Virus record (IMG/VR): IMGVR_UViG_2874920711_000012 | Span: 1 to 33,220 of that record | Strand: one strand, 5' to 3' | From: a virus | Lineage: Duplodnaviria > Heunggongvirae > Uroviricota > Caudoviricetes | DNA: 33,220 nt | In this document: positions 9,098 through 33,220 of the stretch, piece after piece | How the letters are laid out: each line of letters begins with the position of its first letter | How positions within the stretch are numbered: position 1 is the first letter of the stretch | The notes under the pieces: model-generated | The model's input: the letters and a program-made list of their open reading frames with translations, nothing else | What the model was told of the DNA's origin: nothing | Database searches by the model: none | Program-made: the position numbers and the translations under genes

Positions 9098-9527
9098 TGC
9101 CGTCACGGTGCTGAAAACTAACCCCGATATGCTGCGGATATTCGTGGATAACGGGAGTATTGCCTCCACACTGGCGACGTCGCTGTCGTTCGAAAAGCGT
9201 TACACGCTCAATGTGATTGTGACCGACTTTACCGGTGATTTTGACCTGCTCATCGTGCCGGTGCTGGCGTGGCTGCGGGAAAATCAGCCCGACATCATGA
9301 CCACCGACGAAGGCCAGAAAAAGGGCTTCACGTTTTATGCAGACATCAACAATGACAGCAGCTTTGATATAAGCATCAGCCTGATGCTGACCGAGCGCAC
9401 GCTGGTCAGTGAGGTGGACGGCGCGCTGCATGTGAAGAATATCCCTGAACCTCCGCCGCCGGAGCCGGTTACCCGCCCGGTGGAGCTTTATATCAATGGC
9501 GAACTGGTGAGCAAGTGGGATGAATGA
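9060..9527 (+). CDS. R: Tail completion protein gpR
   Basis: 155-aa ORF, P2 gpR-like sequence and position. Confidence 0.85.
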   Translation: MLKPDSLRRALTDAVTVLKTNPDMLRIFVDNGSIASTLATSLSFEKRYTLNVIVTDFTGDFDLLIVPVLAWLRENQPDIMTTDEGQKKGFTFYADINNDSSFDISISLMLTERTLVSEVDGALHVKNIPEPPPPEPVTRPVELYINGELVSKWDE

Positions 9528-9972
9528 GTTTAAGCGTTTTGAAGACCGGCTGGCCGGACTGACTGAATCGCTGTCACCGTCAGGGCGTCGGCGACTGAGC
9601 GCCGAACTGGCGAAACGTCTGCGTCAGAGTCAGCAGCGTCGGGTGATGGCACAGAAAGCCCCGGACGGCACACCCTACGCGCCACGTCAGCAGCAGAGCG
9701 CCAGAAAAAAGACCGGTCGCGTTAAGCGAAAAATGTTTGCGAAACTTATCACCAGTCGTTTTTTGCATATCCGCGCCAGCCCGGAACAGGCATCAATGGA
9801 GTTTTACGGCGGGAAGTCACCGAAAATCGCCAGTGTGCATCAGTTCGGTCTGTCGGAAGAAAACCGGAAAGACGGTAAGAAAATTGATTATCCGGCGCGT
9901 CCTCTGCTCGGCTTTACCGGTGAGGATGTGCAGATGATTGAAGAGATTATCCTGGCTCACCTGAATCGTTAG
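9520..9972 (+). CDS. S: Tail completion protein gpS
   Basis: 150-aa ORF, P2 gpS-like sequence and position. Confidence 0.85.
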   Translation: MNEFKRFEDRLAGLTESLSPSGRRRLSAELAKRLRQSQQRRVMAQKAPDGTPYAPRQQQSARKKTGRVKRKMFAKLITSRFLHIRASPEQASMEFYGGKSPKIASVHQFGLSEENRKDGKKIDYPARPLLGFTGEDVQMIEEIILAHLNR

Positions 9973-10051
9973 CTTTAATCATCTGAGAATATAAGATAGA
10001 AATCAATTGATTAGCATAATTTATTTTGAATTTTCATGTTAATAAATAAAA

Positions 10052-10073
10052 GGCCAGTTATTGGCCTTTTATC
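10052..10073. terminator. Bidirectional intrinsic terminator between S and the cargo gene at 10075-10494
   Basis: Hairpin GGCCAGTTATTGGCC flanked by A/T runs on both sides (…ataaataaaa GGCCAgttaTTGGCC ttttatc…). Confidence 0.6.
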
Positions 10074-10074
10074 A

Positions 10075-10494
10075 TTACTTTCCATTTTTTAATGAATTGA
10101 TTAACGATGCTATTTGCTCAATGCCATCAAATGTAGATGGTATCTTATCATCGGATAGCATGATGTTTGAAAATACTACGTCTTCGAATTTTGAAAGCGC
10201 TTCCGGATTGTTTTTCCTTATCTCTGAGGAATAGTCGCTATAACTCTGAATGAACTGACAAAGGCTCTTTCTGAGTTCTATTTGCATAATCTGAGTTCGT
10301 AACGATATATGATTTAGCAGTACAACTCTAAAGTAATACATGAAAATCAATGTAACTGATGCAAAAGGTAGTGCTGACATAAAATATGTGGCAGCATTTG
10401 TCGTTTCGAGAGCTGGTAATTTATGCATTCCATAGTATATCAGCTGGGAGGGAATGATTATAGCCAAGATGATAAGAATTATTCTTGATAGCAT
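10075..10494 (-). CDS. Hypothetical two-TM membrane protein (139 aa), downstream gene of the S-V cargo module
   Basis: Intact ORF on the strand opposite the phage late genes; two N-terminal hydrophobic segments (RIILIILAIIIPSQLIYYGM and YFMSALPFASVTLIFMYYF); AT-rich. Function unknown. Confidence 0.6.
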   Translation of the reverse strand: MLSRIILIILAIIIPSQLIYYGMHKLPALETTNAATYFMSALPFASVTLIFMYYFRVVLLNHISLRTQIMQIELRKSLCQFIQSYSDYSSEIRKNNPEALSKFEDVVFSNIMLSDDKIPSTFDGIEQIASLINSLKNGK

Positions 10495-10580
10495 GATTGC
10501 ACTTTCTTTTTTTTGCCAAGTGAATTAAAGCCTTCAAACAATCCAACAAAATTAAATGCGACCTCATACCCTTTTAATGA

Positions 10581-11147
10581 CTATTTGATTGACTCTATTT
10601 TGGCATGTTGCTCCTTTAAGAAGGAGTCGCACTTTTCGAAAAATTGACGCCCTTCGTTTAAACTATCAATGTATTTTTTATATGTGTCAACATTGCTGGA
10701 GCTTAAAACTTCTTTAACCATTGCTAATGGCAGTTCTCTAAGAGAAAAGTCTATCTGTGCTCTGCTCCGCTCATCGAATTCATTATAGTTATACAGAGCA
10801 AAATCCTTGATGGTTCTTAGTGGTGAAAAGTGAGACTCTATTTCCGGAGAGAGAATGCTTGGTTCAATGATAAAGCTAAAAAAGCAAGTGAATATAAGGT
10901 TGATGCTGTTGTTATCTTCTCCCTTTTTTCTTAAGAAACTTTTAAAGGTGTCGCCAATCATAGCAATGTTGTGCTGGGATTTTTTGTCCCAATCTTCAGG
11001 GTTTTCGGAAATGAAGTTTATTGCTTGAGCAATTATTTTGTTTCTGTTTGATTCAAAGTTTGTGCCGGGAGTCAGCGTGTTCAAAAAGACCAGATAATCT
11101 TTGAACAATTCTTTCATTGTTTCTGACGAGAAAAAGTAAGTACTCAT
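10581..11147 (-). CDS. Hypothetical soluble protein (~188 aa), upstream gene of the S-V cargo module
   Basis: AT-rich ORF co-oriented with 10075-10494, 86 bp upstream of it. Start chosen at MSTYFF (11147); the ORF track extends to 11243, which would overlap the V start. No recognised motif. Confidence 0.5.
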   Translation of the reverse strand: MSTYFFSSETMKELFKDYLVFLNTLTPGTNFESNRNKIIAQAINFISENPEDWDKKSQHNIAMIGDTFKSFLRKKGEDNNSINLIFTCFFSFIIEPSILSPEIESHFSPLRTIKDFALYNYNEFDERSRAQIDFSLRELPLAMVKEVLSSSNVDTYKKYIDSLNEGRQFFEKCDSFLKEQHAKIESIK

Positions 11148-11233
11148 AATGGATTTTGTTGTCCCTTGTTGTTCTGTGCACCAGAAATCGTGGTGTGATT
11201 TACTTCGAGATTGTACAGAATCATTATTATCGA

Positions 11234-11863
11234 ATGAATGCACAATACAATGAAATTCTTCGCTTTATACGCAATATGATTCGCACTGGCATTATTGTCG
11301 AAACCGACCTTAATGCCGGTCGCTGCCGTGTGCAGACCGGCGGCATGTGCACCGACTGGCTTCAGTGGCTGACCCATCGCGCCGGACGTTCGCGCACATG
11401 GTGGGCACCTTCCGTGGGGGAACAGGTGCTGATTCTGGCCGTGGGCGGTGAACTCGACACGGCGTTCGTTCTGCCGGGGATTTATTCCTGCGATAACCCC
11501 GCGCCGTCTGCGTCGGCGGATGCCCTGCATATCCGTTTCCCTGACGGGGCGGTGATTGAGTATGAACCCGAAACCAGTGCACTCACGGTAAGCGGAATTA
11601 AAACGGCCAGCGTGACGGCTTCTGATTCTGTTACTGCCACGGTGCCGGTGGTCATGGTGAAAGCGTCAACCCGCATCACCCTGGACACCCCGGAGGTGGT
11701 CTGCACCAACAGACTGATTACCGGCACGCTGGAAGTGCAGAAGGGCGGGACGATGCGCGGCAACATTAAACATACCGGCGGTGAACTCTCATCAAACGGT
11801 AAGGTACTGCATACCCATAAACACCCCGGCGACAGCGGCGGCACAACCGGGAGTCCTCTATGA
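11234..11863 (+). CDS. V: Baseplate spike protein gpV
   Basis: …LRFIRNMIRTGIIVETDLNAGRCRVQTGGMCTDWLQW… P2 gpV-like; start at ATG 11234. Confidence 0.9.
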   Translation: MNAQYNEILRFIRNMIRTGIIVETDLNAGRCRVQTGGMCTDWLQWLTHRAGRSRTWWAPSVGEQVLILAVGGELDTAFVLPGIYSCDNPAPSASADALHIRFPDGAVIEYEPETSALTVSGIKTASVTASDSVTATVPVVMVKASTRITLDTPEVVCTNRLITGTLEVQKGGTMRGNIKHTGGELSSNGKVLHTHKHPGDSGGTTGSPL

Positions 11864-15759: not shown

Positions 15760-16287
15760 ATGCAGCATTTAAAAAATATTACGGCGGGTAATCCAAAAAC
15801 GGTTGAACAATATCAATTGACAAAGGACTTTGATGTTGTCTGGTTTTTTTCAGAAGATGGTAAGAACTGGTACGAAGAACAAAAGTATTTTGCTGATGAC
15901 ACGATAAAAATAGCGTACGACAAAGATAATATCATCCACTATGTGGAAAAGGATGTGACAGCTATCAGACCGGATGGATTAAGTGTTGTTGAAGTGGCGG
16001 ATATTACTGCTAACCGACGGGCGGACATTTCAGGGAACTGGATGTTTAAGGACGGCAAAGTGATTAAACGCGTTTATACGGCAGAGGAATTACAGCAGCA
16101 GGCAGAAATTCGGAAAGCCAGACTTCTTGCAGATGCTGAATCCGTGATTTTGCCGCTGGAGCGCGCGGTCAGACTGAACATGGCAACAGATGAGGAGCGT
16201 AGCCGACTGGAATCATGGGAACGCTACAGCGTTCTGGTCAGTCGTGTGGATCCTGCAAATCCTGAATGGCCGGAAATGCCGCAATAA
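15760..16287 (+). CDS. G: Tail fiber assembly chaperone gpG
   Basis: 175-aa ORF immediately after H, P2 gpG-like. Confidence 0.85.
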
Positions 16288-16731: not shown

Positions 16732-16865
16732 GGGATGGAGGAACTTGATTAAAGGCAGGGGGTTACCTCCCCTGCTAGACTGGCCCCTGAATCTCCAGAC
16801 AACCAGTATCACTTAAATAAGTGATAGTCTTAATACTAGTTTTTAGACTAGTCATTGGAGTACAG

Positions 16866-17231
16866 ATGATTGATGTCTTAGGGCCGGAGAAACGCAGACG
16901 GCGTACCACACAGGAAAAGATCGCAATTGTTCAGCAGAGCTTTGAACCGGGGATGACGGTCTCCCTCGTTGCCCGGCAACATGGTGTAGCAGCCAGCCAG
17001 TTATTTCTCTGGCGTAAGCAATACCAGGAAGGAAGTCTTACTGCTGTGGCCGCCGGAGAACAGGTTGTTCCTGCCTCTGAACTTGCTGCCGCCATGAAGC
17101 AGATTAAAGAACTCCAGCGCCTGCTCGGCAAGAAAACGATGGAAAATGAACTCCTCAAAGAAGCCGTTGAATATGGACGGGCAAAAAAGTGGATAGCGCA
17201 CGCGCCCTTATTGCCCGGGGATGGGGAGTAA
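16866..17231 (+). CDS. insC: IS2 InsC (orfA)
   Basis: [56 protein letters not shown]… IS3-family orfA. Confidence 0.85.
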
Positions 17232-18094
17232 GCTTAGTCAGCCGTTGTCTCCGGGTGTCGCGTGCGCAGTTGCACGTCATTCTCAGACGAACCGATGACT
17301 GGATGGATGGCCGCCGCAGTCGTCACACTGATGATACGGATGTGCTTCTCCGTATACACCATGTTATCGGAGAGCTGCCCACGTATGGTTATCGTCGGGT
17401 ATGGGCGCTGCTTCGCAGACAGGCAGAACTTGATGGTATGCCTGCGAACAATGCCAAACGTGTTTACCGGATCATGCGCCAGAATGCGCTGTTGCTTGAG
17501 CGAAAACCTGCTGTACCGCCATCGAAACGGGCACATACAGGCAGAGTGGCCGTGAAAGAAAGCAATCAGCGATGGTGCTCTGACGGGTTCGAGTTCTGCT
17601 GTGATAACGGAGAGAGACTGCGTGTCACGTTCGCGCTGGACTGCTGTGATCGTGAGGCACTGCACTGGGCGGTGACTACCGGCGGCTTCAACAGTGAAAC
17701 AGTACAGGACGTCATGCTGGGAGCGGTGGAACGCCGCTTCGGCAACGATCTTCCGTCGTCTCCAGTGGAGTGGCTGACGGATAATGGTTCATGCTACCGG
17801 GCTAATGAAACACGCCAGTTCGCCCGGATGTTGGGACTTGAACCGAAGAACACGGCGGTGCGGAGTCCGGAGAGTAACGGAATAGCAGAGAGCTTCGTGA
17901 AAACGATAAAGCGTGACTACATCAGTATCATGCCCAAACCAGACGGGTTAACGGCAGCAAAGAACCTTGCAGAGGCGTTCGAGCATTATAACGAATGGCA
18001 TCCGCATAGTGCGCTGGGTTATCGCTCGCCACGGGAATATCTGCGGCAGCGGGCTTGTAATGGGTTAAGTGATAACAGATGTCTGGAAATATAG
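17189..18094 (+). CDS. insD: IS2 InsD (orfB, DDE transposase domain)
   Basis: 301-aa ORF overlapping insC in another frame, typical IS3-family orfA/orfB arrangement. Confidence 0.85.
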
Positions 18095-18180
18095 GGGCAA
18101 ATCCACCTGCCTTTTTTCGTTTCTGCGCAAGTTAGCTCTGTTATTATAATCCTTACTCACACTGTAAGGACATAGTTCAA

Positions 18181-18309
18181 ATGACTGAATGGCTTAATGC
18201 ACATTTTGGTGCAGACGCAGCTACCTATCTTAGCTTATTAGTCGGCGTACTGGCACTGTTTGGTATTGGGGCGGTGTTACATATAGAATCAGACAGCAAA
18301 ACAACATAA
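18181..18309 (+). CDS. Small TM peptide ORF (42 aa); possibly the N-terminal part of one gene with 18339-18797
   Basis: ATG at 18181 with AAGGA upstream and a TATAAT at 18145-18150; hydrophobic stretch LSLLVGVLALFGIGAVL. The downstream ORF frame is open back to 18232, so a single base difference in 18232-18306 would fuse the two. Confidence 0.4.
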   Translation: MTEWLNAHFGADAATYLSLLVGVLALFGIGAVLHIESDSKTT

Positions 18310-18338
18310 AACAGAAGGCAAAGAAAACCGAGGGTGAT

Positions 18339-18797
18339 GTGAACCAGGCCGGGCGGGATATTAATCAGACCACCAACGTTTACCACACATCCAATGAATC
18401 TACTGAGGACCCTGTAAAAAAAAAGCAAGATGAACATGATCTGAAGATAATCGACCAGATCCTTGAATTGCTGCCTTATGAGGATACTACTCAATGGGTT
18501 GAGCAGAGCTACCTGAGCGGTATACGGCAAGATGTTTGCTTAAACATTGAAAAAGCTGAAAAATTTAGCGGTGAAAAGTATCGGTTATTCAATACTGAAG
18601 TGAATGGTGCGAAAGACGCTTTTTTGGACGCTATGACCGCATACGTAGATAGTACGCTACCATTTATGAGTGTTGATTACCCGAACAGAAAGCCAGTGAT
18701 GCTAAGCCTTCCCCATGACTGGAAGAGTAAGAGTGTTGAATCGGAGGCAAACTTCCGCTTTCATCAGCAAAATGTGCGTGAAACATCGGGGGGATGA
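18339..18797 (+). CDS. Hypothetical protein (152 aa as called)
   Basis: AT-rich ORF with no recognised motif; followed by a terminator hairpin that is split by the IS10-like element. Confidence 0.5.
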   Translation: MNQAGRDINQTTNVYHTSNESTEDPVKKKQDEHDLKIIDQILELLPYEDTTQWVEQSYLSGIRQDVCLNIEKAEKFSGEKYRLFNTEVNGAKDAFLDAMTAYVDSTLPFMSVDYPNRKPVMLSLPHDWKSKSVESEANFRFHQQNVRETSGG

Positions 18798-18955
18798 TTG
18801 CGCGCTATGAGGATTTTGTCAGGACATTTAAGGCTCATGGATTCATAAGCGATAAACTGTAAAGGCGCAGTGGGTCAGCGAACACCGCAACGACAGAACC
18901 GCGTAAGCGGTAAAATCAGCTTGTTAACTGGCGAGTTTATAGCCGTCCCTCCGGG

Positions 18956-20255
18956 CTGAGGGATCCCCACAAAATTACTGCTAATAAACCAGCACCATAT
19001 TTCGGTAGGTTCTGGACAGATGGTTTAGAACTGTGCTCAGTACTGTTCGTCTTAAAATAAGTGGCGAGTGTCGAAGAACATTCTTCGCTAACGTCAGATA
19101 TGAGATAACCCGCCGGGATTTAATGCTGTTAGCCTGATATTTCAGGTGTAACCCTTTATTTTCAGCGTGATAACCGAGTAACCACATTACGATAGTGCTC
19201 AACGTTGCCAGCAGACTCAGAACCAGAATTCTTCCTGTTGAACGACTTTTGCTGGCCCGAAGACCAAATCCGAAGCGCCCGTTCTTTTCATCACGAAAGT
19301 TTTGCTCTATCTGCATTCGCCGACTGTATAACTTGATGATTTCTCGCGCTCTGAAGTCATTTGTACTGCTGAAGATCAACCAGGCTTCTTTTGCTGATTT
19401 GCTCTGTTCTTTGTCTGTTTTGTTTAAACCACTCTGACCTTTCGAACGTTTCTTTTTTCGCCCTTTTGCCGATTTCTTATAGGTGTAAAAATGCCCCGGA
19501 TGCTTTTTTTCCTTTCTTTAACCAGCCTTCCAGCCCCCATATATTCCGGTGTTTTACATTCAGGGCTATCCGACACTTTTAACCATCTTTCAGGCGCGTT
19601 ATCGAGGCAATACTGAACGTTATTTCTGATCCGACCAATAAAATCCCAGCCCAGAGAAGTAATATGGTGAAACCATGCGCTCTGAAATCCAGCATCCGTG
19701 ACAATAATAACCCTGGCATCGGGGGGCAGGGATTGAGCAAGGGAATCAAGGAAATCATGTTGTATCAATGGATTATTTTGTTTTTCAGAAGGAACAACCT
19801 TACTCAATAACGGAATGGAACGCCCGTCACACAGAAGGCTGGCACGAAGAACATGATGCTCCTGGGAGGGATAGCCACTCCAGTCTACGGCTATTACACA
19901 TAAAGATAACTGCCGTGTCAGCATTGAAGTGATATTCCTGAAAATCATTGGAATATCGCGATGGAGCGCCTCATTACCCATGAGGCGATCAATACGTTTG
20001 CTCTTATTCTTAACTTGTGCATTACCCGGGAAAAAACGTCCGATACTGGTCAGCGTCAGAGATGCTCCGTTGATTAACGCCACTGTGGCATCCATCAGGG
20101 CATTTTGTCGGTACTGATGAAATGGTGCTAAGGCATCCCGGAAGAAATTCTGACATACTTTATGAACAGGCATAGCAGTGATCTCATTGAATTGTTGGCA
20201 CAAATCAGTAGATCACATAATGCTATGTCTGTCTCGTTTTCTGGGAATTCCTCAG
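18956..20255 (-). mobile_element. IS10-like element (IS4 family, ~1300 bp) with 9-bp target-site duplication CCCTCCGGG
   Basis: Imperfect terminal inverted repeats CTGAGGGATCCCCACAAAA (18956-) and complement of CTGAGGAATTCCCAGAAAA (-20255); direct repeats at 18947-18955 and 20256-20264; inserted in a terminator hairpin. Confidence 0.75.
18981..20203 (-). CDS. IS10-like DDE transposase, split into two ORFs (apparent frameshift near 19380-19425)
   Basis: N-part has KRIDRLMGN, IAVDWSG and IVTDAGF motifs; C-part has the YREK signature (YSRRMQIEQNFRDEK); clear colinearity with IS10 transposase as recalled. Confidence 0.75.
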
Positions 20256-20341
20256 CCCTCCGGGGCGGCTTTTTTATGACTATAATCGACAGAATCACCT
20301 GAACGTCCAGGTGGGTTTCCCTGACAGGACGTCAAGGAATG

Positions 20342-20376
20342 TTCGCTTTGTGCCAGGAGCGGACGTTGCCAGCATT
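20342..20376. repeat. Copy B of the ~35-nt conserved motif seen at 16338-16372
   Basis: See copy A; lies in the intergenic region ~150 bp upstream of the 20526 ORF. Confidence 0.5.
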
Positions 20377-20525
20377 GAGTTTTCAGTTTTCAAAGGTATA
20401 TCTTTAGATTTAGTTCACTTAGAATGAGCGTGTTAAAGTTTTCGGTTATGTGAGTATATTGAACATAACAAATAAACAATAATTTTTGTATTCCATTTAG
20501 GATATAAAAAAGAGGGATTTGAGTT

Positions 20526-21311
20526 ATGTACGATTATAGTTTTTTACTTACTCCATCTACAGGATTTGTTAAAGGATTATGTGGAGTTTGGTCGAATGAT
20601 TTCTCTATAAATGATGATTCTGACTCTGATTTAGGGCAAACAGATATTCATTTACTTTCATCTCCTCATTTGAATATCATATCCGACCCAAATGAATTGG
20701 CTTCCAAGTTAAAAGGTTTGTTGATGCTCATGAACGGCGCACTTAGCGTTCTTTATGGTTTTGAAAGATATCAATCTTTTGGTCCTCTTTCTATTTCTGG
20801 AAGTGAAGGCATTAATTACTCGGAAATATGCGGCTTTAAATCAATGGATGTAACTCAGGTAAACCCCTTTAATTTCCATGACATACAGCAACCACACCCT
20901 CGCGCTGATAATTTTTCACGATTAATTAATTTATCATCTAAACATGAATCCTTACGTGTTGTTTTAGGTATGTGTGCCTTAGGTTATGATTGGGTTAATC
21001 TTTATCGTTTGTGGGAAACAATTAGAGAATATGTATATGATAAATATGTGAAAGGTATACTAAATTTCCCCGACGCTTATAAAGGCAAGAAATATCAGAG
21101 AGATAAAGTAATTAGCATGGCTTTTAATATTGATGAAAAGGAAATCAGCAGATTCACGGGCACTGCTAATAGCTTTGAACTGTTAGGGTATCTTGCGAGA
21201 CATGGAAAGGGAAGTTCCGGAGGGATATTAAAAAATCCGATGTCAAGAGTTGACGCAAGCATTTTCGTACACAAAGCAACTTACAAATATTGTAAGTTAT
21301 TTTTGATGTAA
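20526..21311 (+). CDS. Hypothetical protein (261 aa), AT-rich cargo gene
   Basis: ATG with AGAGGG Shine-Dalgarno 8 nt upstream; low GC; no recognised motif; convergent with the HNH-domain gene. Confidence 0.6.
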   Translation: MYDYSFLLTPSTGFVKGLCGVWSNDFSINDDSDSDLGQTDIHLLSSPHLNIISDPNELASKLKGLLMLMNGALSVLYGFERYQSFGPLSISGSEGINYSEICGFKSMDVTQVNPFNFHDIQQPHPRADNFSRLINLSSKHESLRVVLGMCALGYDWVNLYRLWETIREYVYDKYVKGILNFPDAYKGKKYQRDKVISMAFNIDEKEISRFTGTANSFELLGYLARHGKGSSGGILKNPMSRVDASIFVHKATYKYCKLFLM

Positions 21312-21413
21312 GTAAAAAGTTGAAGCTATAATACTCAAAGTATCGAAAACTACGTTCGTCGTGCACTCGAAAACAATATGCTTATTGTGTCTGCACTAAT
21401 TACTCAAGGTCCG

Positions 21414-21450
21414 AGAAAAATGGCGAAGCTCATCTTTTTCAGGCTTCGCC
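21414..21450 (-). terminator. Intrinsic terminator for the minus-strand HNH-domain gene
   Basis: Hairpin GGCGAAGC…GCTTCGCC (21422-21450) followed on the minus strand by a U-run (plus-strand A-run 21416-21420), just past the gene's stop at 21473. Confidence 0.55.
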
Positions 21451-21472
21451 AACTTGAGTTATTGGTTAAAAT

Positions 21473-22826
<1,354 letters not shown>

Positions 22827-22898
22827 TGGAGCACCTGTGTTGTTCTGAGGTGAGCATATCACCTCTGTTCAGGTGGCCAAATTCAGTGTGCCACTTCA

Positions 22899-23475
22899 AC
22901 TCGACGATCAACGATAGCGGAGACTCAGGTGCAATCTCGGAGCGAATCGCCGTAAGAGAGAGTCGGAGCTCCTTCAAAGAATCCGAGACTCGTGCTGGAT
23001 CCTCTTGAGCATATGGCAGATAAAGAGAACTCTTGTCTTCCAATAAATGGATCAACCGCAGAGCAATTTTCTCGTCTGGGCGATGCGATAGAAATTGAAA
23101 CATTAGCCTCTTTCCTCCCTCCAAGCACTCCTTCATTAGTGATTCGTGGTCACGTTTCCATTTTCGCAAATACTCGGCGGGGTAGCCCATACCGCCATTC
23201 TTATCAACTAAATCAGCACAAGCTCCGCACAACCATATAGCATTTTTTATGCTCTTCCGCTCTGTTTCTGACTGAGACATGTCATAGCGCGGTCCGCCAG
23301 GGCTCGCCGCGCAGATATGCGCCGCCTCACCCGTCTTGATAGAAAGATTTTCCGCCAATTGATCCGGGCCGATTGTTACCCTATGACAAGAGGGATTGCT
23401 ACAAATATATGTAGCGCGCTCTGCTACCTTACCTACAACGCTTGGAGGAAAGTTGTGCCTATTTGTCTTGGTCAT
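22899..23475 (-). pseudogene. 5' part of an HNH-nuclease-domain gene (~250 aa when rejoined), interrupted by IS911
   Basis: N-terminal region has CSNPSC, AAHICAASPGGPRY and NAIWLCGACADLV, an HNH-like arrangement; the ORF-track C-terminus beyond 22899 is IS911-derived. Confidence 0.6.
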
Positions 23476-23499
23476 AAAAGTTATGCTTCTTTGTTTTTT

Positions 23500-24597
23500 T
23501 CATCTATGTGGGGAGAATAAAATCATACTTTTTATATCTGATCCTAAATAGCTGCGCTTAATACCGCTACACTTTTGCCAGTCCATGTTTGCCTCCGGGA
23601 ATGGGCTGACGGTTTCCATAAAATGGCGAACTTTTTTCAACAGTTGCCACATTGAGCGGCACTGATGATTACGCGTTATTGTGTCGTGAAGTGCCTGCCA
23701 TAGCCGTTCAACATGATTCACCCATGGCGAGTAAACCGGCTGATAAATGACCCTGAACTTCGGGTTCTCCTTCAGCCAGCTCTGTGTTTCCCGGCTTTTG
23801 TGGATAATGTAGTTGTCCACGATCAGCGTGATGGTTTTCGCCCGACGGTATGTCGCTTTAAGCCGCTTCAGCAGGCTGATGAACAGCGCCGAACTTTTGC
23901 TGTTGCCGCCCACATAGCTGACTTTACCTGTCCCGCTGTGCAGCGCTCCGGCCAGATAATATTTTTCATTCTGTCCCGGCGTGACCACCCGTTTTTGCTG
24001 TCCGCGCAGTTGCCAGTCCGCACCGATTTTGGGATGAAGATGGATATCCACTTCATCTTCATAAAAGACCGGATGCTCTGCGCTGCATTCGTCCAGTGCT
24101 TTATGGATTGCTGCCATCTTTTCATCTTTATGCGGGTCACGGATACGCAGAGTTGGCGCAGCCCTTCGCCACACAATCCCCGCAGACGGCAACCAGCGGC
24201 GAACGGTTCCGGCATTTAACTGGCAACCGGTTATCTCATTGATTTTTATTGCCAGCAGTTCTGTACTCCAGCGTGAACGCTGGTAGACAAAGTCGCCGGG
24301 AGAATGTTTTACCAGCTCACGTAACAGTGTGCAGATATGCTCAAACGGCCAGCGACGGGCACGCCCGGCAGGTAATGATTTCAGTCCCTCAACACCCGAC
24401 TGCGTGAACCAGTTAATCCAGCGTCCAACAGAGGAACGGGCGCAGCAGAGCGTTCTGGCAACGTCGCTGACACGGTCGCCCCGGTGCAGCATCAGCATGG
24501 CAGTCAGTCTGCGGGCATAATTTTTATCGTGTGTTTTATGGATGGCTTTCTGCATCAGGCGTCGTTCGTCACGGGAAATTGGTGCTATGATCGGCAT
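23500..24597 (-). CDS. IS630 transposase (ORF as called runs past the IS end)
   Basis: MPIIAPISRDERRLMQKAIHKTHDKNYARRLTAMLMLHRGDRVSDVARTLCCARSSVGRW… matches IS630 transposase as recalled; the last ~15 codons lie outside the element. Confidence 0.85.
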   Translation of the reverse strand: MPIIAPISRDERRLMQKAIHKTHDKNYARRLTAMLMLHRGDRVSDVARTLCCARSSVGRWINWFTQSGVEGLKSLPAGRARRWPFEHICTLLRELVKHSPGDFVYQRSRWSTELLAIKINEITGCQLNAGTVRRWLPSAGIVWRRAAPTLRIRDPHKDEKMAAIHKALDECSAEHPVFYEDEVDIHLHPKIGADWQLRGQQKRVVTPGQNEKYYLAGALHSGTGKVSYVGGNSKSSALFISLLKRLKATYRRAKTITLIVDNYIIHKSRETQSWLKENPKFRVIYQPVYSPWVNHVERLWQALHDTITRNHQCRSMWQLLKKVRHFMETVSPFPEANMDWQKCSGIKRSYLGSDIKSMILFSPHR

Positions 24598-24698
24598 TGC
24601 TCAGTCCGGTTGGTGATTTGTTTTGATTTGGCGATTGATCAGATCGCACAATCCGGGCTAAGTTCCCTCAAAATGATCTACTATTCCGCGCAGCTATT
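23547..24698 (-). mobile_element. IS630 (1152 bp) inserted at a CTAG target with TA duplication
   Basis: Terminal inverted repeats AATAGCTGCGC… at both ends; TA at 23545-23546 and 24699-24700, flanked by C and G. Confidence 0.85.
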
Positions 24699-24993
24699 TA
24701 GGTCTGACCAGCAACCTATTGATCAAAAAACCAAGATATTAGCTAAAAAAATCAGCATACTTGAGACCAAGCTCAATGTCCGCTCCTCGCTCAAAGCAGA
24801 CTGTCAGATTTGATAGCATTTGGGCTATGTAAATTGTCAGGCGGAAAATGAGTGAGTACAAATCAGGACAGGCGGGCGAATTGCCCGCATTTTCTTTATC
24901 TGTTGTTTCATCCCCTGACCAGCCAGGTCAAATAGCGTCTCATGCTCTGCACAACAGAAAATAGTTGCACCCATTAACCACGGAGTTAAACGG

Positions 24994-26182
24994 ATGAGTG
25001 ACTATCATCACGGCGTGCAGGTGCTGGAGATTAACGACGGCACCCGCGTCATTTCCACCGTATCCACGGCCATTGTCGGCATGGTCTGCACGGCCAGCGA
25101 TGCAGATGCGGAAACCTTCCCCTCAATAAACCGGTGCTGATTACCAATGTGCAGAGCGCAATTGCAAAGGCCGGTAAAAAAGGCACGCTGGCGGCGTCGT
25201 TACAGGCCATCGCTGACCAGTCAAAACCGGTCACCGTTGTTGTGCGCGTGGAAGACGGCACCGGCGACGACGAAGAAACGAAGCTCGCGCAGACCGTTTC
25301 CAATATCATCGGCACCACCGACGAAAACGGTCAGTACACCGGACTGAAAGCCCTGCTGGCGGCGGAGTCGGTAACCGGTGTTAAACCGCGCATTCTCGGT
25401 GTGCCGGGACTGGATACCAAAGAGGTGGCTGTTGCACTGGCATCAGTCTGTCAGAAGCTGCGCGCTTTCGGGTATATCAGCGCATGGGGCTGTAAAACCA
25501 TTTCCGAGGTGAAAGCCTACCGCCAGAATTTCAGCCAGCGTGAGCTGATGGTCATCTGGCCGGATTTCCTCGCATGGGATACGGTCACCAGTACCACCTC
25601 CACCGCGTATGCCACCGCCCGTGCGCTGGGGCTGCGCGCTAAAATCGACCAGGAGCAGGGCTGGCATAAAACGCTGTCCAACGTCGGGGTGAACGGTGTT
25701 ACCGGCATCAGCGCGTCCGTATTCTGGGATTTGCAGGAGTCCGGCACCGATGCTGACCTGCTTAACGAGTCAGGCGTCACAACGCTGATTCGCCGTGACG
25801 GTTTCCGCTTCTGGGTAACCGTACCTGCTCTGATGACCCGCTGTTCCTCTTTGAAAACTACACCCGCACCGCGCAGGTGCTGGCCGACACGATGGCTGAG
25901 GCGCACATGTGGGCGGTGGACAAGCCCATCACCGCAACGCTGATTCGCGACATCGTTGACGGCATCAATGCCAAATTCCGTGAGCTGAAAACAAACGGCT
26001 ATATCGTGGATGCGACCTGCTGGTTCAGCGAAGAATCCAACGATGCGGAAACCCTCAAGGCCGGAAAACTGTATATCGACTACGACTATACACCGGTGCC
26101 TCCTCTCGAAAACCTGACCCTGCGCCAGCGTATTACCGATAAATACCAGGCAAATCTGGTCACCTCGGTTAACAGCAATTAA
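24994..26182 (+). pseudogene. FI: Tail sheath protein gpFI with two apparent frameshifts (near 25125 and 25820)
   Basis: [43 protein letters not shown] then a stop; adding one C to the C-run restores …[11 protein letters not shown]…; a second break near GFRFW. Confidence 0.85.
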
Positions 26183-31858: not shown

Positions 31859-33220
31859 TCACTTACCGTGGGGGTTACGCGTGGTTTCCCCGGAGAAATT
31901 ACGCATTAGCAGCGCGTAATTTAGCTCAAGATCCTGCGGGACCGGGAGCCACACAGTATAACCATCGCCTGGTGCGACCGGCATAGCTTCGCCTTTGGCG
32001 TTTTCCATGTGCTCAAGGGTAAAGTTAATGTTGCCTTGCGGCGTCATCAGCTCAAGACTGTCGCCAACGGAGAATTTATTTTTCACCGCTACCGCTGCGA
32101 GGTCCCCCTTGCGCTCACCGGTAAACTCACCAACAAACTGCTGGCGGTCAGAAACTGAATAACCGTATTCGTAGTTCTGATAATCGTCGTGAGTATGACG
32201 ACGCAGGAAACCTTCGGTATAGCCACGATGCGCCAGACCTTCCAGAGTTTCCAGCAGGCTGGTATCGAACGGTTTTCCCGCAGCGGCGTCATCGATAGCT
32301 TTGCGGTAAACCTGTGCGGTGCGTGCGCAATAGTAGAAAGATTTGGTACGACCTTCGATTTTCAGCGAATGCACGCCCATTTTGGTCAGGCGTTCTACAT
32401 GGGCGATGGCGCGCAGATCTTTCGAGTTCATGATGTAAGTGCCGTGCTCATCTTCAAACGCGGTCATATACTCGCCCGGACGCTGGGCCTCTTCGATCAT
32501 AAACACTTTGTCGGTTGGCGCGCCGATACCCAGCGTCGGCTCAACATTTTGCACCGGAATCGGCTCGTACTTGTGTACGATGTTGCCAACGTCATCTTCT
32601 TTCCCTTCCTGGACGTTGTACTCCCAGCGGCAGGCGTTGGTGCAGGTACCCTGGTTCGGATCGCGCTTGTTGATATAGCCAGAGAGCAGGCAGCGACCGG
32701 AGTAGGCCATGCACAGTGCGCCGTGAACGAAGATCTCGATCTCCATATCCGGCACCTGATTGCGGATCTCTTCAATCTCTTCAAGCGACAGCTCGCGAGA
32801 GAGGATCACGCGGGTCAGGCCCATTTGCTGCCAGAATTTCACCGTCGCCCAGTTTACGGCGTTAGCCTGCACCGAGAGGTGGATCGGCATTTCAGGGAAG
32901 TGCTCACGCACCAGCATAATCAGCCCTGGATCGGACATAATCAGCGCATCCGGCCCCATTTCCACCACCGGTTTCAGGTCACGGATAAAGGTTTTCAGCT
33001 TGGCGTTGTGCGGTGCAATGTTGACCACGACATAAAACTTTTTCCCCAGCGCGTGGGCTTCATTGATGCCGAGCTGAAGATTTTCGTGGTTGAATTCGTT
33101 GTTGCGCACACGTAGGGAGTAACGCGGCTGGCCCGCATAAACAGCATCTGCGCCATAAGCGAAAGCGTAACGCATATTTTTCAGCGTTCCCGCCGGGGAA
33201 AGGAGTTCCGGTTTAAACAT
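31859..33220 (-). CDS. yegQ: Peptidase U32-family protein YegQ (host gene)
   Basis: 453-aa ORF starting at the last base of the window; sequence matches enterobacterial YegQ as recalled; it flanks cyaR and the P2-like ogr locus as in E. coli K-12. Confidence 0.85.
   Translation of the reverse strand: MFKPELLSPAGTLKNMRYAFAYGADAVYAGQPRYSLRVRNNEFNHENLQLGINEAHALGKKFYVVVNIAPHNAKLKTFIRDLKPVVEMGPDALIMSDPGLIMLVREHFPEMPIHLSVQANAVNWATVKFWQQMGLTRVILSRELSLEEIEEIRNQVPDMEIEIFVHGALCMAYSGRCLLSGYINKRDPNQGTCTNACRWEYNVQEGKEDDVGNIVHKYEPIPVQNVEPTLGIGAPTDKVFMIEEAQRPGEYMTAFEDEHGTYIMNSKDLRAIAHVERLTKMGVHSLKIEGRTKSFYYCARTAQVYRKAIDDAAAGKPFDTSLLETLEGLAHRGYTEGFLRRHTHDDYQNYEYGYSVSDRQQFVGEFTGERKGDLAAVAVKNKFSVGDSLELMTPQGNINFTLEHMENAKGEAMPVAPGDGYTVWLPVPQDLELNYALLMRNFSGETTRNPHGK

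Follow-up and report, generated by a model that had tools for sequence, protein, structure and literature searches.

Phages of the P2 type have three moron regions, one of which is the position of orf30 in P2, between the tail genes S and V, and what this site carries is considered non-essential (PMC6823313). Rousset et al. 2022, in their survey of defence hotspots, dealt with the A-Q locus of P2 only. Here we describe an occupant of the S-V site in a stretch of 33,220 nucleotides (nt) of viral DNA (IMG/VR record IMGVR_UViG_2874920711_000012, positions 1 to 33,220; hereafter the window), in which positions 10075-11147 of the minus strand very probably constitute one pseudogenised gene, the cargo of an uncharacterised family (Table 1). 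The gene shares its insertion site with orf30 of P2, with ORF16 of R18C and with an open reading frame (ORF) of 261 amino acids (aa), WP_000490543.1, that is likewise antisense. By sequence it falls with the members of phrog_9373, among them UKL54256.1 of Yersinia phage vB_YenM_31.17 and UAV86048.1 of the Klebsiella phage-plasmid pJN2-26, both annotated as hypothetical proteins. Like the gene of the Yersinia phage, it lies at the S-V site on the opposite strand; unlike its phrog_9373 relatives, the window copy is split and truncated. Searches with tblastn found no match in P2 itself.

A sequence-only reading of the window had described two ORFs, of 188 and 139 aa, on the minus strand between S and V, and both are there; a hydropathy scan also agrees with the two N-terminal hydrophobic helices that it assigned to the 139-aa product. 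Its further claim, that the two ORFs are intact and form a two-gene module, did not hold, because a single frame is interrupted by a TAG codon and a one-base deletion and because both ORFs fall in one profile. In particular, the 188-aa ORF matches phrog_9373 (PHROGs v4; 388 positions; unknown function) at positions 8-197 with E = 1.9e-48, and the 139-aa ORF matches positions 250-387 of the same profile with E = 1.5e-63, so that by profile match and by coverage the two ORFs are members of this one group. The same 1.26 kb is present in 60 complete E. coli genomes at 90-99.4% identity, and in both RefSeq records that we inspected (L001, L002) it holds a single coding sequence of 1044 nt for a 'hypothetical protein' (WP_000661081.1, WP_223479977.1), with a 'phage virion morphogenesis protein' on one side and 'phage baseplate assembly protein V' on the other.

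A three-way alignment of the window allele with two intact alleles (A1) locates both lesions. The first replaces the Glu189 codon with a stop codon, and the second, a deletion between 10510 and 10509, turns GGCAAAAAGAAAG into GGCAAAAAAAAG. The 86-nt 'intergenic' gap between the two ORFs encodes one of the most conserved motifs of the family (alignment A2), and this motif is untranslated in the window allele because it lies downstream of the stop codon. Residues N199, F200, G206, F207 and K214, invariant in A2, are thereby untranslated, and in all the split costs the window allele 30 residues. Since these residues, including invariant positions, are lost and the remainder is out of frame, the window allele should be inactive, as judged from its sequence. 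Five amino-acid substitutions set the window allele apart from the two intact alleles, as do the stop and the frameshift; it has no synonymous change of its own. Between intact alleles, dN/dS is 0.13-0.29. The locus thus displays a stop and a frameshift relative to intact orthologues, lesions that are inherited, and the loss of conserved residues together with relaxed constraint, as is to be expected of a pseudogene.

Both lesions (the TAG codon and the run of eight A residues) are found in six of six independent assemblies that encode the 188-aa product, with 0-2 mismatches to the window cassette, and their recurrence rules out sequencing error as the source of the split. The 188-aa product (WP_039072384.1, carried under the name of Shigella dysenteriae at NCBI, with 39 contigs listed) is indexed in 46 blocks of the assembly collection. 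The 139-aa product has been called once only, in one Logan record, and its place is an uncalled gap at all six loci that were inspected. The split form is limited to one clonal lineage. Other broken alleles occur in Shigella: an S. dysenteriae allele ends '...GKKKVKSCYQE', consistent with a frameshift caused by a 4-nt GAAA slip; another reads '...AFNFG' and then stops, an ending shared with an E. coli record; and an S. boydii allele (21 contigs) stops after residue 137. The comparison of these alleles (P0122, P0124 and P0004/P0126) with window positions 10075-11147 suggests that no fewer than three or four distinct lesions have put the gene out of action.

The sequence-only reading had compared the soluble and the small membrane protein with abortive-infection or exclusion pairs of the RexA/RexB kind. 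By analogy only, there is a likeness to RexA/RexB of phage lambda, in that both are prophage-encoded, include a membrane component and are presumed to be expressed in the lysogen; unlike RexA/RexB, the locus has one gene, two membrane helices and no conserved partner. RexB has four membrane helices. The analogy fails because the pair is an artefact of pseudogenisation, produced by a nonsense codon and a frameshift within one gene. Nor is a pair conserved elsewhere: relatives are single proteins of approximately 355 aa, with a full-length ORF at 74 of 80 viral loci in IMG/VR and at 40 of 42 non-phage loci, where the gene is solitary, and they have no conserved neighbour. Neither the two fragments nor the intact protein resembles any PADLOC model.

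The window gene is horizontally acquired cargo (a moron) of a P2-like prophage that has decayed and lies antisense between S and V, and its assignment to the S-V (orf30) moron locus in the sequence-only reading was correct. The guanine-plus-cytosine (GC) content is 0.343 in the cassette as against 0.57 in its flanks, which bears out the earlier description of a low-GC acquired cassette; in profile, it is 0.32-0.37 over positions 9800-11200 and 0.55-0.60 on both sides. The bidirectional terminator that had been proposed to separate the cargo from S corresponds to a hairpin at 10046-10072 with a folding energy of -16.2 kcal/mol (z = -4.3 against shuffles), which lies between S and the cargo gene and could terminate transcription in either direction. 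A promoter-like site upstream of the gene was picked out by eye (Table 1); a consensus promoter scan did not pick it up, its closest minus-strand match being at 11301-11273. The prophage is defective and decayed, because its G-FI (Z/fun) moron region is full of insertion sequence (IS) elements: window positions 16800-25950 hold at least four IS transposase genes, bounded by a tail-fibre assembly gene at 15760-16287 and a tail-sheath gene truncated to 269 aa at 25134-25943. The final ORF of the window (31859-33220) is a host-type Peptidase_U32 gene (E = 5e-89), and the prophage end is for this reason placed upstream of approximately 31.8 kb.

Table 1 Features of the split gene, of the S-V site and of the surrounding prophage. 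Positions are those of the window unless a contig is named.
Feature	Position	Strand	Details
Whole gene, very probable pseudogene	10075-11147	-	ATG at 11147 to TAA ending at 10075; remnant of a single 357-codon gene; intact form is of the P0001 / WP_000661081.1 type in E. coli
5' fragment ORF	10581-11147	-	188 aa, ATG at 11147; identical to WP_039072384.1; all-helical N-terminal domain and part of the stalk helix; AlphaFold2 model with pLDDT 87
3' fragment ORF	10075-10494	-	139 aa; start is internal Met219 of the intact protein; membrane hairpin and conserved C-terminal module
Premature stop	10581-10583	-	TAG against GAG (Glu189) of intact alleles; A1 column 651
1-base deletion site	10509-10510	-	G of GGCAAAAAGAAAG gone, leaving A8 run 10507-10514 and a shifted frame; A1 column 725
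Juxtamembrane motif remnant	10515-10559	-	AFNFVGLFEGFNSLG; conserved motif still spelled in the old frame
Transmembrane helix 1	10426-10494	-	Intact residues 219-241; hydropathy scan and AlphaFold2 helix
Transmembrane helix 2	10318-10386	-	Intact residues ~255-277; hydropathy scan and AlphaFold2 helix
C-terminal motif KIPSTFDG	10123-10146	-	P, S, T, D, G invariant; K, F in at least 90% (A2); low-confidence segment
Hairpin, putative terminator	10046-10072	either	AAAAGGCCAgttatTGGCCTTTT; A run before, T run after; symmetric; between S and cargo 3' end
Candidate promoter-like site	11210-11238	-	TTCATT, 17 nt, TACAAT; ~60 nt upstream of ATG; by-eye reading, weak
Gene S, tail completion / virion morphogenesis	9520-9972	+	Near-identical RefSeq annotation; PF05069 on homologous loci
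Gene V, baseplate/spike	11234-11863	+	Near-identical RefSeq annotation; PF04717 and PF18715 on homologous loci
IS transposase gene, rve-type	17189-18094	+	
IS transposase gene, DDE_Tnp_1	19424-20203	-	
IS transposase gene, rve-type	21473-22336	-	
IS transposase gene, DDE_3	23500-24597	-	
Second cargo beside the family gene at the S-V site of other contigs	L126 7192-7860; L144 8041-8871; L138 7097-7729		

In viruses the family gene is confined almost entirely to the S-V site and lies antisense to the late genes. It stands directly between S and V at 60 of 80 IMG/VR loci, and at a further 14 it adjoins one of the two, mostly V, while its other side is taken up by a contig end or additional cargo; wherever S is seen (72 of 72 loci) the two genes are on opposite strands. 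Homologues in Citrobacter and Pantoea (39-50% identity) occupy the same slot, as does that of the Yersinia phage, which is 27-30% and 49-59% identical over the two fragments. S and V of the window's type are found in 1587 of 5426 complete E. coli genomes, and 60 of these 1587 have the family gene. From 60 evenly spaced records of the ranked 1590 matches, we estimate that the slot is mostly empty, with S and V 72 bp apart, and that about a quarter of the sites hold the antisense 261-aa ORF WP_000490543.1, which has no sequence relationship to the gene studied here (hhalign probability 0.1). Position between S and V, antisense orientation, foreign composition, a terminator of its own and variable occupancy among near-identical phages together mark the gene as an S-V moron. 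Some P2-like viral contigs carry a second cargo beside the family gene, which may be the 8xMP 'octameric membrane protein' (PF24838), a HigB/HigA toxin-antitoxin or an ORF6N-domain protein.

The family extends well beyond these phages. A search with the 357-aa query returned 346 clusters, the 120 listed being mostly 352-359 aa long, and a profile run against 1.84 billion cluster representatives found 927 with E <= 1e-3, of which 667 have E <= 1e-30; among the 150 profile matches listed, nearly all are 350-370 aa long and match end to end. In species representatives of GTDB, 79 loci are spread over Gamma- and Betaproteobacteria, Campylobacterota, Geobacterales, Nitrospirales, Thermodesulfobacteriota and Bacteroidota, with a P2-like context, as detectable with the R, S, V, W and J proteins of the window, at only about 6 of the 79. 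At every one of the 42 non-phage loci the gene is poorer in GC than its flanks (0.34 against 0.48; Wilcoxon p = 1.6e-8), and an all-against-all BLAST comparison of two neighbours on each side at these loci found no recurrent partner gene. The family consists of a mobile, single-gene, membrane-anchored accessory protein that is under purifying selection and has no conserved partner. Shorter relatives of approximately 217-257 aa in Enterobacter (L012, 6001-6654) and Endozoicomonas (L014, 7001-7774) adjoin IS transposase genes, and the Enterobacter one also neighbours a 61-aa remnant of gene S; these are truncated remnants and not a short subfamily.

The database cluster of the intact protein comprises 314 member sequences on 792 contigs, and from an upstream MSTYFF start the protein is 357 aa long; one intact allele, of 357 codons, lies at 3105278-3106354 of NZ_CP020835.1 (E. 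coli CFSAN051542). An AlphaFold2 model that we built from a 50-sequence alignment is all-helical over its full length, with a predicted local distance difference test score (pLDDT) of 80 and a predicted template modelling score (pTM) of 0.46. In this model an all-helical N-terminal domain of approximately residues 1-150 (helices within 9-149) leads into a stalk, a single helix of about 80 residues (151-231) that enters the first hydrophobic segment; a short loop separates it from another long helix (252-313), which begins with the second hydrophobic segment and is followed by two further helices. The juxtamembrane motif AFNFVGL..GF stands before the two-helix membrane hairpin, and pLDDT falls below 50 at residues 330-350, around the KIPSTFDG motif. 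Clusters of Lys and Arg lie ahead of the first transmembrane helix and behind the second, a pattern from which, by the positive-inside rule, both large domains are predicted to face the cytoplasm. Residues 189-357 are better conserved than residues 1-188, with mean pairwise identities of 0.52 and 0.29, respectively. SSU5-like Klebsiella phage-plasmids have a relative of 388 aa, antisense between replication genes (pJN2-26; L011, 3134-4300), that has the stalk, hairpin and C-terminal module in common with the intact protein (residues 137-349, 29% identity) and differs in its N-terminal 140 residues. This relative suggests, at the level of sequence, that the N-terminal domain is swapped within the family.

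The sequence-only reading recognised no known family in either protein, and for the annotated libraries this stands: neither ORF has a Pfam or PADLOC family (PADLOC E <= 1), and the intact protein matches Pfam and NCBIfam at noise level only and has no PADLOC match at E <= 10 (PADLOC-DB release from 2023). It is otherwise for PHROGs, where phrog_9373 accommodates both ORFs. A Pfam scan of the 50 members of the alignment gave no consistent family, the most frequent being OmpH (4 of 50; E = 0.009), and Pfam and NCBIfam models yielded no match to SLATT, to another catalogued two-helix membrane effector or to a holin domain. A profile search of PDB sequences returned nothing below E = 0.36, and Foldseek with the AlphaFold2 model of the intact protein returned nothing at E <= 0.001 in the PDB, and hence no known fold. 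There was also no significant fold match to alpha-helical pore-forming toxins of the ClyA/XaxAB/YaxAB type. To the pore formers XaxB/PaxB, colicin Ia and IpaB the modelled protein gives generic coiled-coil matches at 5-8% identity (Foldseek E = 0.36 for XaxB); the likeness, a hydrophobic hairpin on a coiled-coil stalk, is one of shape alone and does not establish kinship with them. Kinship with 8xMP, with putAbiC or with the alternative 261-aa S-V cargo was rejected, hhalign probabilities being about 0.1. A cluster of ABC-transporter neighbours had prompted the idea of a bacteriocin-immunity or exporter-linked protein; it was dropped for want of a conserved linkage to a C39-peptidase exporter, because among the loci checked the ABC transporter was an MsbA-like flippase (E ~1e-154) with a hybrid histidine kinase as the other neighbour (L022) or was separated from the family gene by an oxidoreductase gene (L070), and because a C39 domain occurred at one locus only (L016).

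A defence role for the intact gene is no more than plausible. Since a variable N-terminal sensor joined to a conserved hairpin and C-terminal effector fits the layout of single-protein abortive-infection and exclusion systems, we tentatively propose that the intact protein may serve as a single-protein membrane phage-exclusion or abortive-infection factor, a possibility to be taken seriously without being presumed. In this scheme, the lysogen would express the protein from the gene's own promoter, and the protein would act at the inner membrane against incoming phages as a one-protein exclusion factor; the variable N-terminal domain would sense the infecting phage, and the conserved hairpin together with the C-terminal module would either oligomerise and damage the membrane, as in abortive infection, or prevent DNA from entering. 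Rather more speculatively, the intact protein might represent a new and widespread single-gene anti-phage system built of a cytoplasmic sensor, a stalk and a membrane-disrupting hairpin with its C-terminal module, which would spread among bacteria as a lone AT-rich gene and would be carried, in Enterobacterales, in the S-V slot of P2-like prophages. If that were true, loss through multiple lesions in Shigella would reflect the cost or the obsolescence of the system.

Hints of defence come from the company that the gene keeps, namely defence-type neighbours at some non-phage loci and HigB/HigA or 8xMP co-cargo at the S-V slot. Approximately 10 of the 147 immediate neighbours at 38 non-phage loci match defence-associated models (TIR effectors, putAbiC, PDC-S35, PDC-S20, HEC-06, JukA, ThsB-like and a type I specificity subunit), a proportion that has no matched background rate and is for that reason not a statistical test of enrichment. 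A metagenome-assembled genome of a saline-biofilm proteobacterium (L017 = L006, 7051-11074) has a homologue of 35-36% identity in an island with a putAbiC-domain protein, a DUF6338 protein, two resolvases and a D5_N primase; because of these genes beside the homologue, the island looks like a mobile defence islet. Several observations weigh on the other side. At non-phage loci the gene mostly neighbours housekeeping genes; its repeated loss in Shigella is explained equally well by general genome decay and by any specific function; the candidate promoter is a weak consensus match only; the pTM of the full-length model makes the domain arrangement uncertain; and we found no paper in the literature that names the protein, its accessions or phrog_9373.

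Although unlikely, the most serious alternative is that the protein is a lysogenic-conversion factor unconnected with defence, that is, an inner-membrane protein that alters envelope physiology, stress tolerance or host interaction and serves as a fitness moron. The gene neaT, a non-defence cargo at another P2 moron site, provides a precedent (PMC3573123), and the ordinary genes around most non-phage homologues and the failure to match any defence model are in keeping with it. However, a patchy spread over several phyla, always AT-rich relative to the flanks, points to a function that does not depend on the niche of the host, and occurrence in phage-plasmids and in islands with putAbiC or TIR genes, together with the sensor-effector layout of a variable N terminus and a conserved C terminus, argues in the same direction. 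Classical superinfection exclusion, in which the protein would block DNA entry at the inner membrane in the manner of T4 Imm or P22 SieA and would not kill the cell as an abortive-infection effector does, we regard as improbable. A prophage-encoded gene antisense to the late operon, with a two-helix inner-membrane anchor and cytoplasmic domains, would suit such a role, but many homologues are solitary and chromosomal, outside recognisable P2-like prophages and in distant phyla, where a phage-specific entry block is less expected. Small superinfection-exclusion proteins do not typically have a large cytoplasmic module like the conserved one of this family.

A role in the lytic cycle, for example in lysis timing or in assembly of the tail or baseplate, is very improbable; the gene does encode a membrane protein and does sit between the lysis cassette with R and S and the baseplate genes, but it opposes the late operon at every locus where S is seen, is foreign in base composition, is common outside phages and is absent from approximately 96% of the prophages whose S and V are at least 95% identical to those of the window, most of which have an empty 72-bp spacer. 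Weakest, and largely refuted, is the reading of the two ORFs as a working two-protein module, a soluble sensor with a small RexA/RexB-like membrane effector, for although both ORFs are open, the second has an ATG directly before its first membrane helix and split single-chain proteins can sometimes still assemble, the split stems from a stop and a frameshift in an allele otherwise nearly identical to intact ones, removes 30 residues with invariant positions among them, is confined to one clonal lineage and is accompanied by window-specific substitutions that all change the protein, while gene callers recorded the second ORF only once, other Shigella alleles break elsewhere and the surrounding prophage is full of IS elements.

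The result for the window corrects an over-reading: what is present is not a two-gene defence pair; it is a dead copy of a cargo gene in a decaying Shigella-type prophage, and cloning of positions 9973-11233 would most likely test a dead allele, because the window copy is a pseudogene. The window allele is a natural null beside the intact E. coli allele, which is the informative one for experiment. The feature in the window is ordinary. The family, of moderate interest as a candidate single-protein membrane defence that would be new, has approximately 930 clusters, constant length, purifying selection and no annotated domain in the libraries searched, and it occupies a cargo slot of P2, S-V, that lies outside the earlier A-Q survey. 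If the intact allele does not protect, the gene would be another prophage moron of unknown use; if it does, a single-protein membrane system would be added to the catalogue of defences, and the S-V slot would become a further place to look for them.

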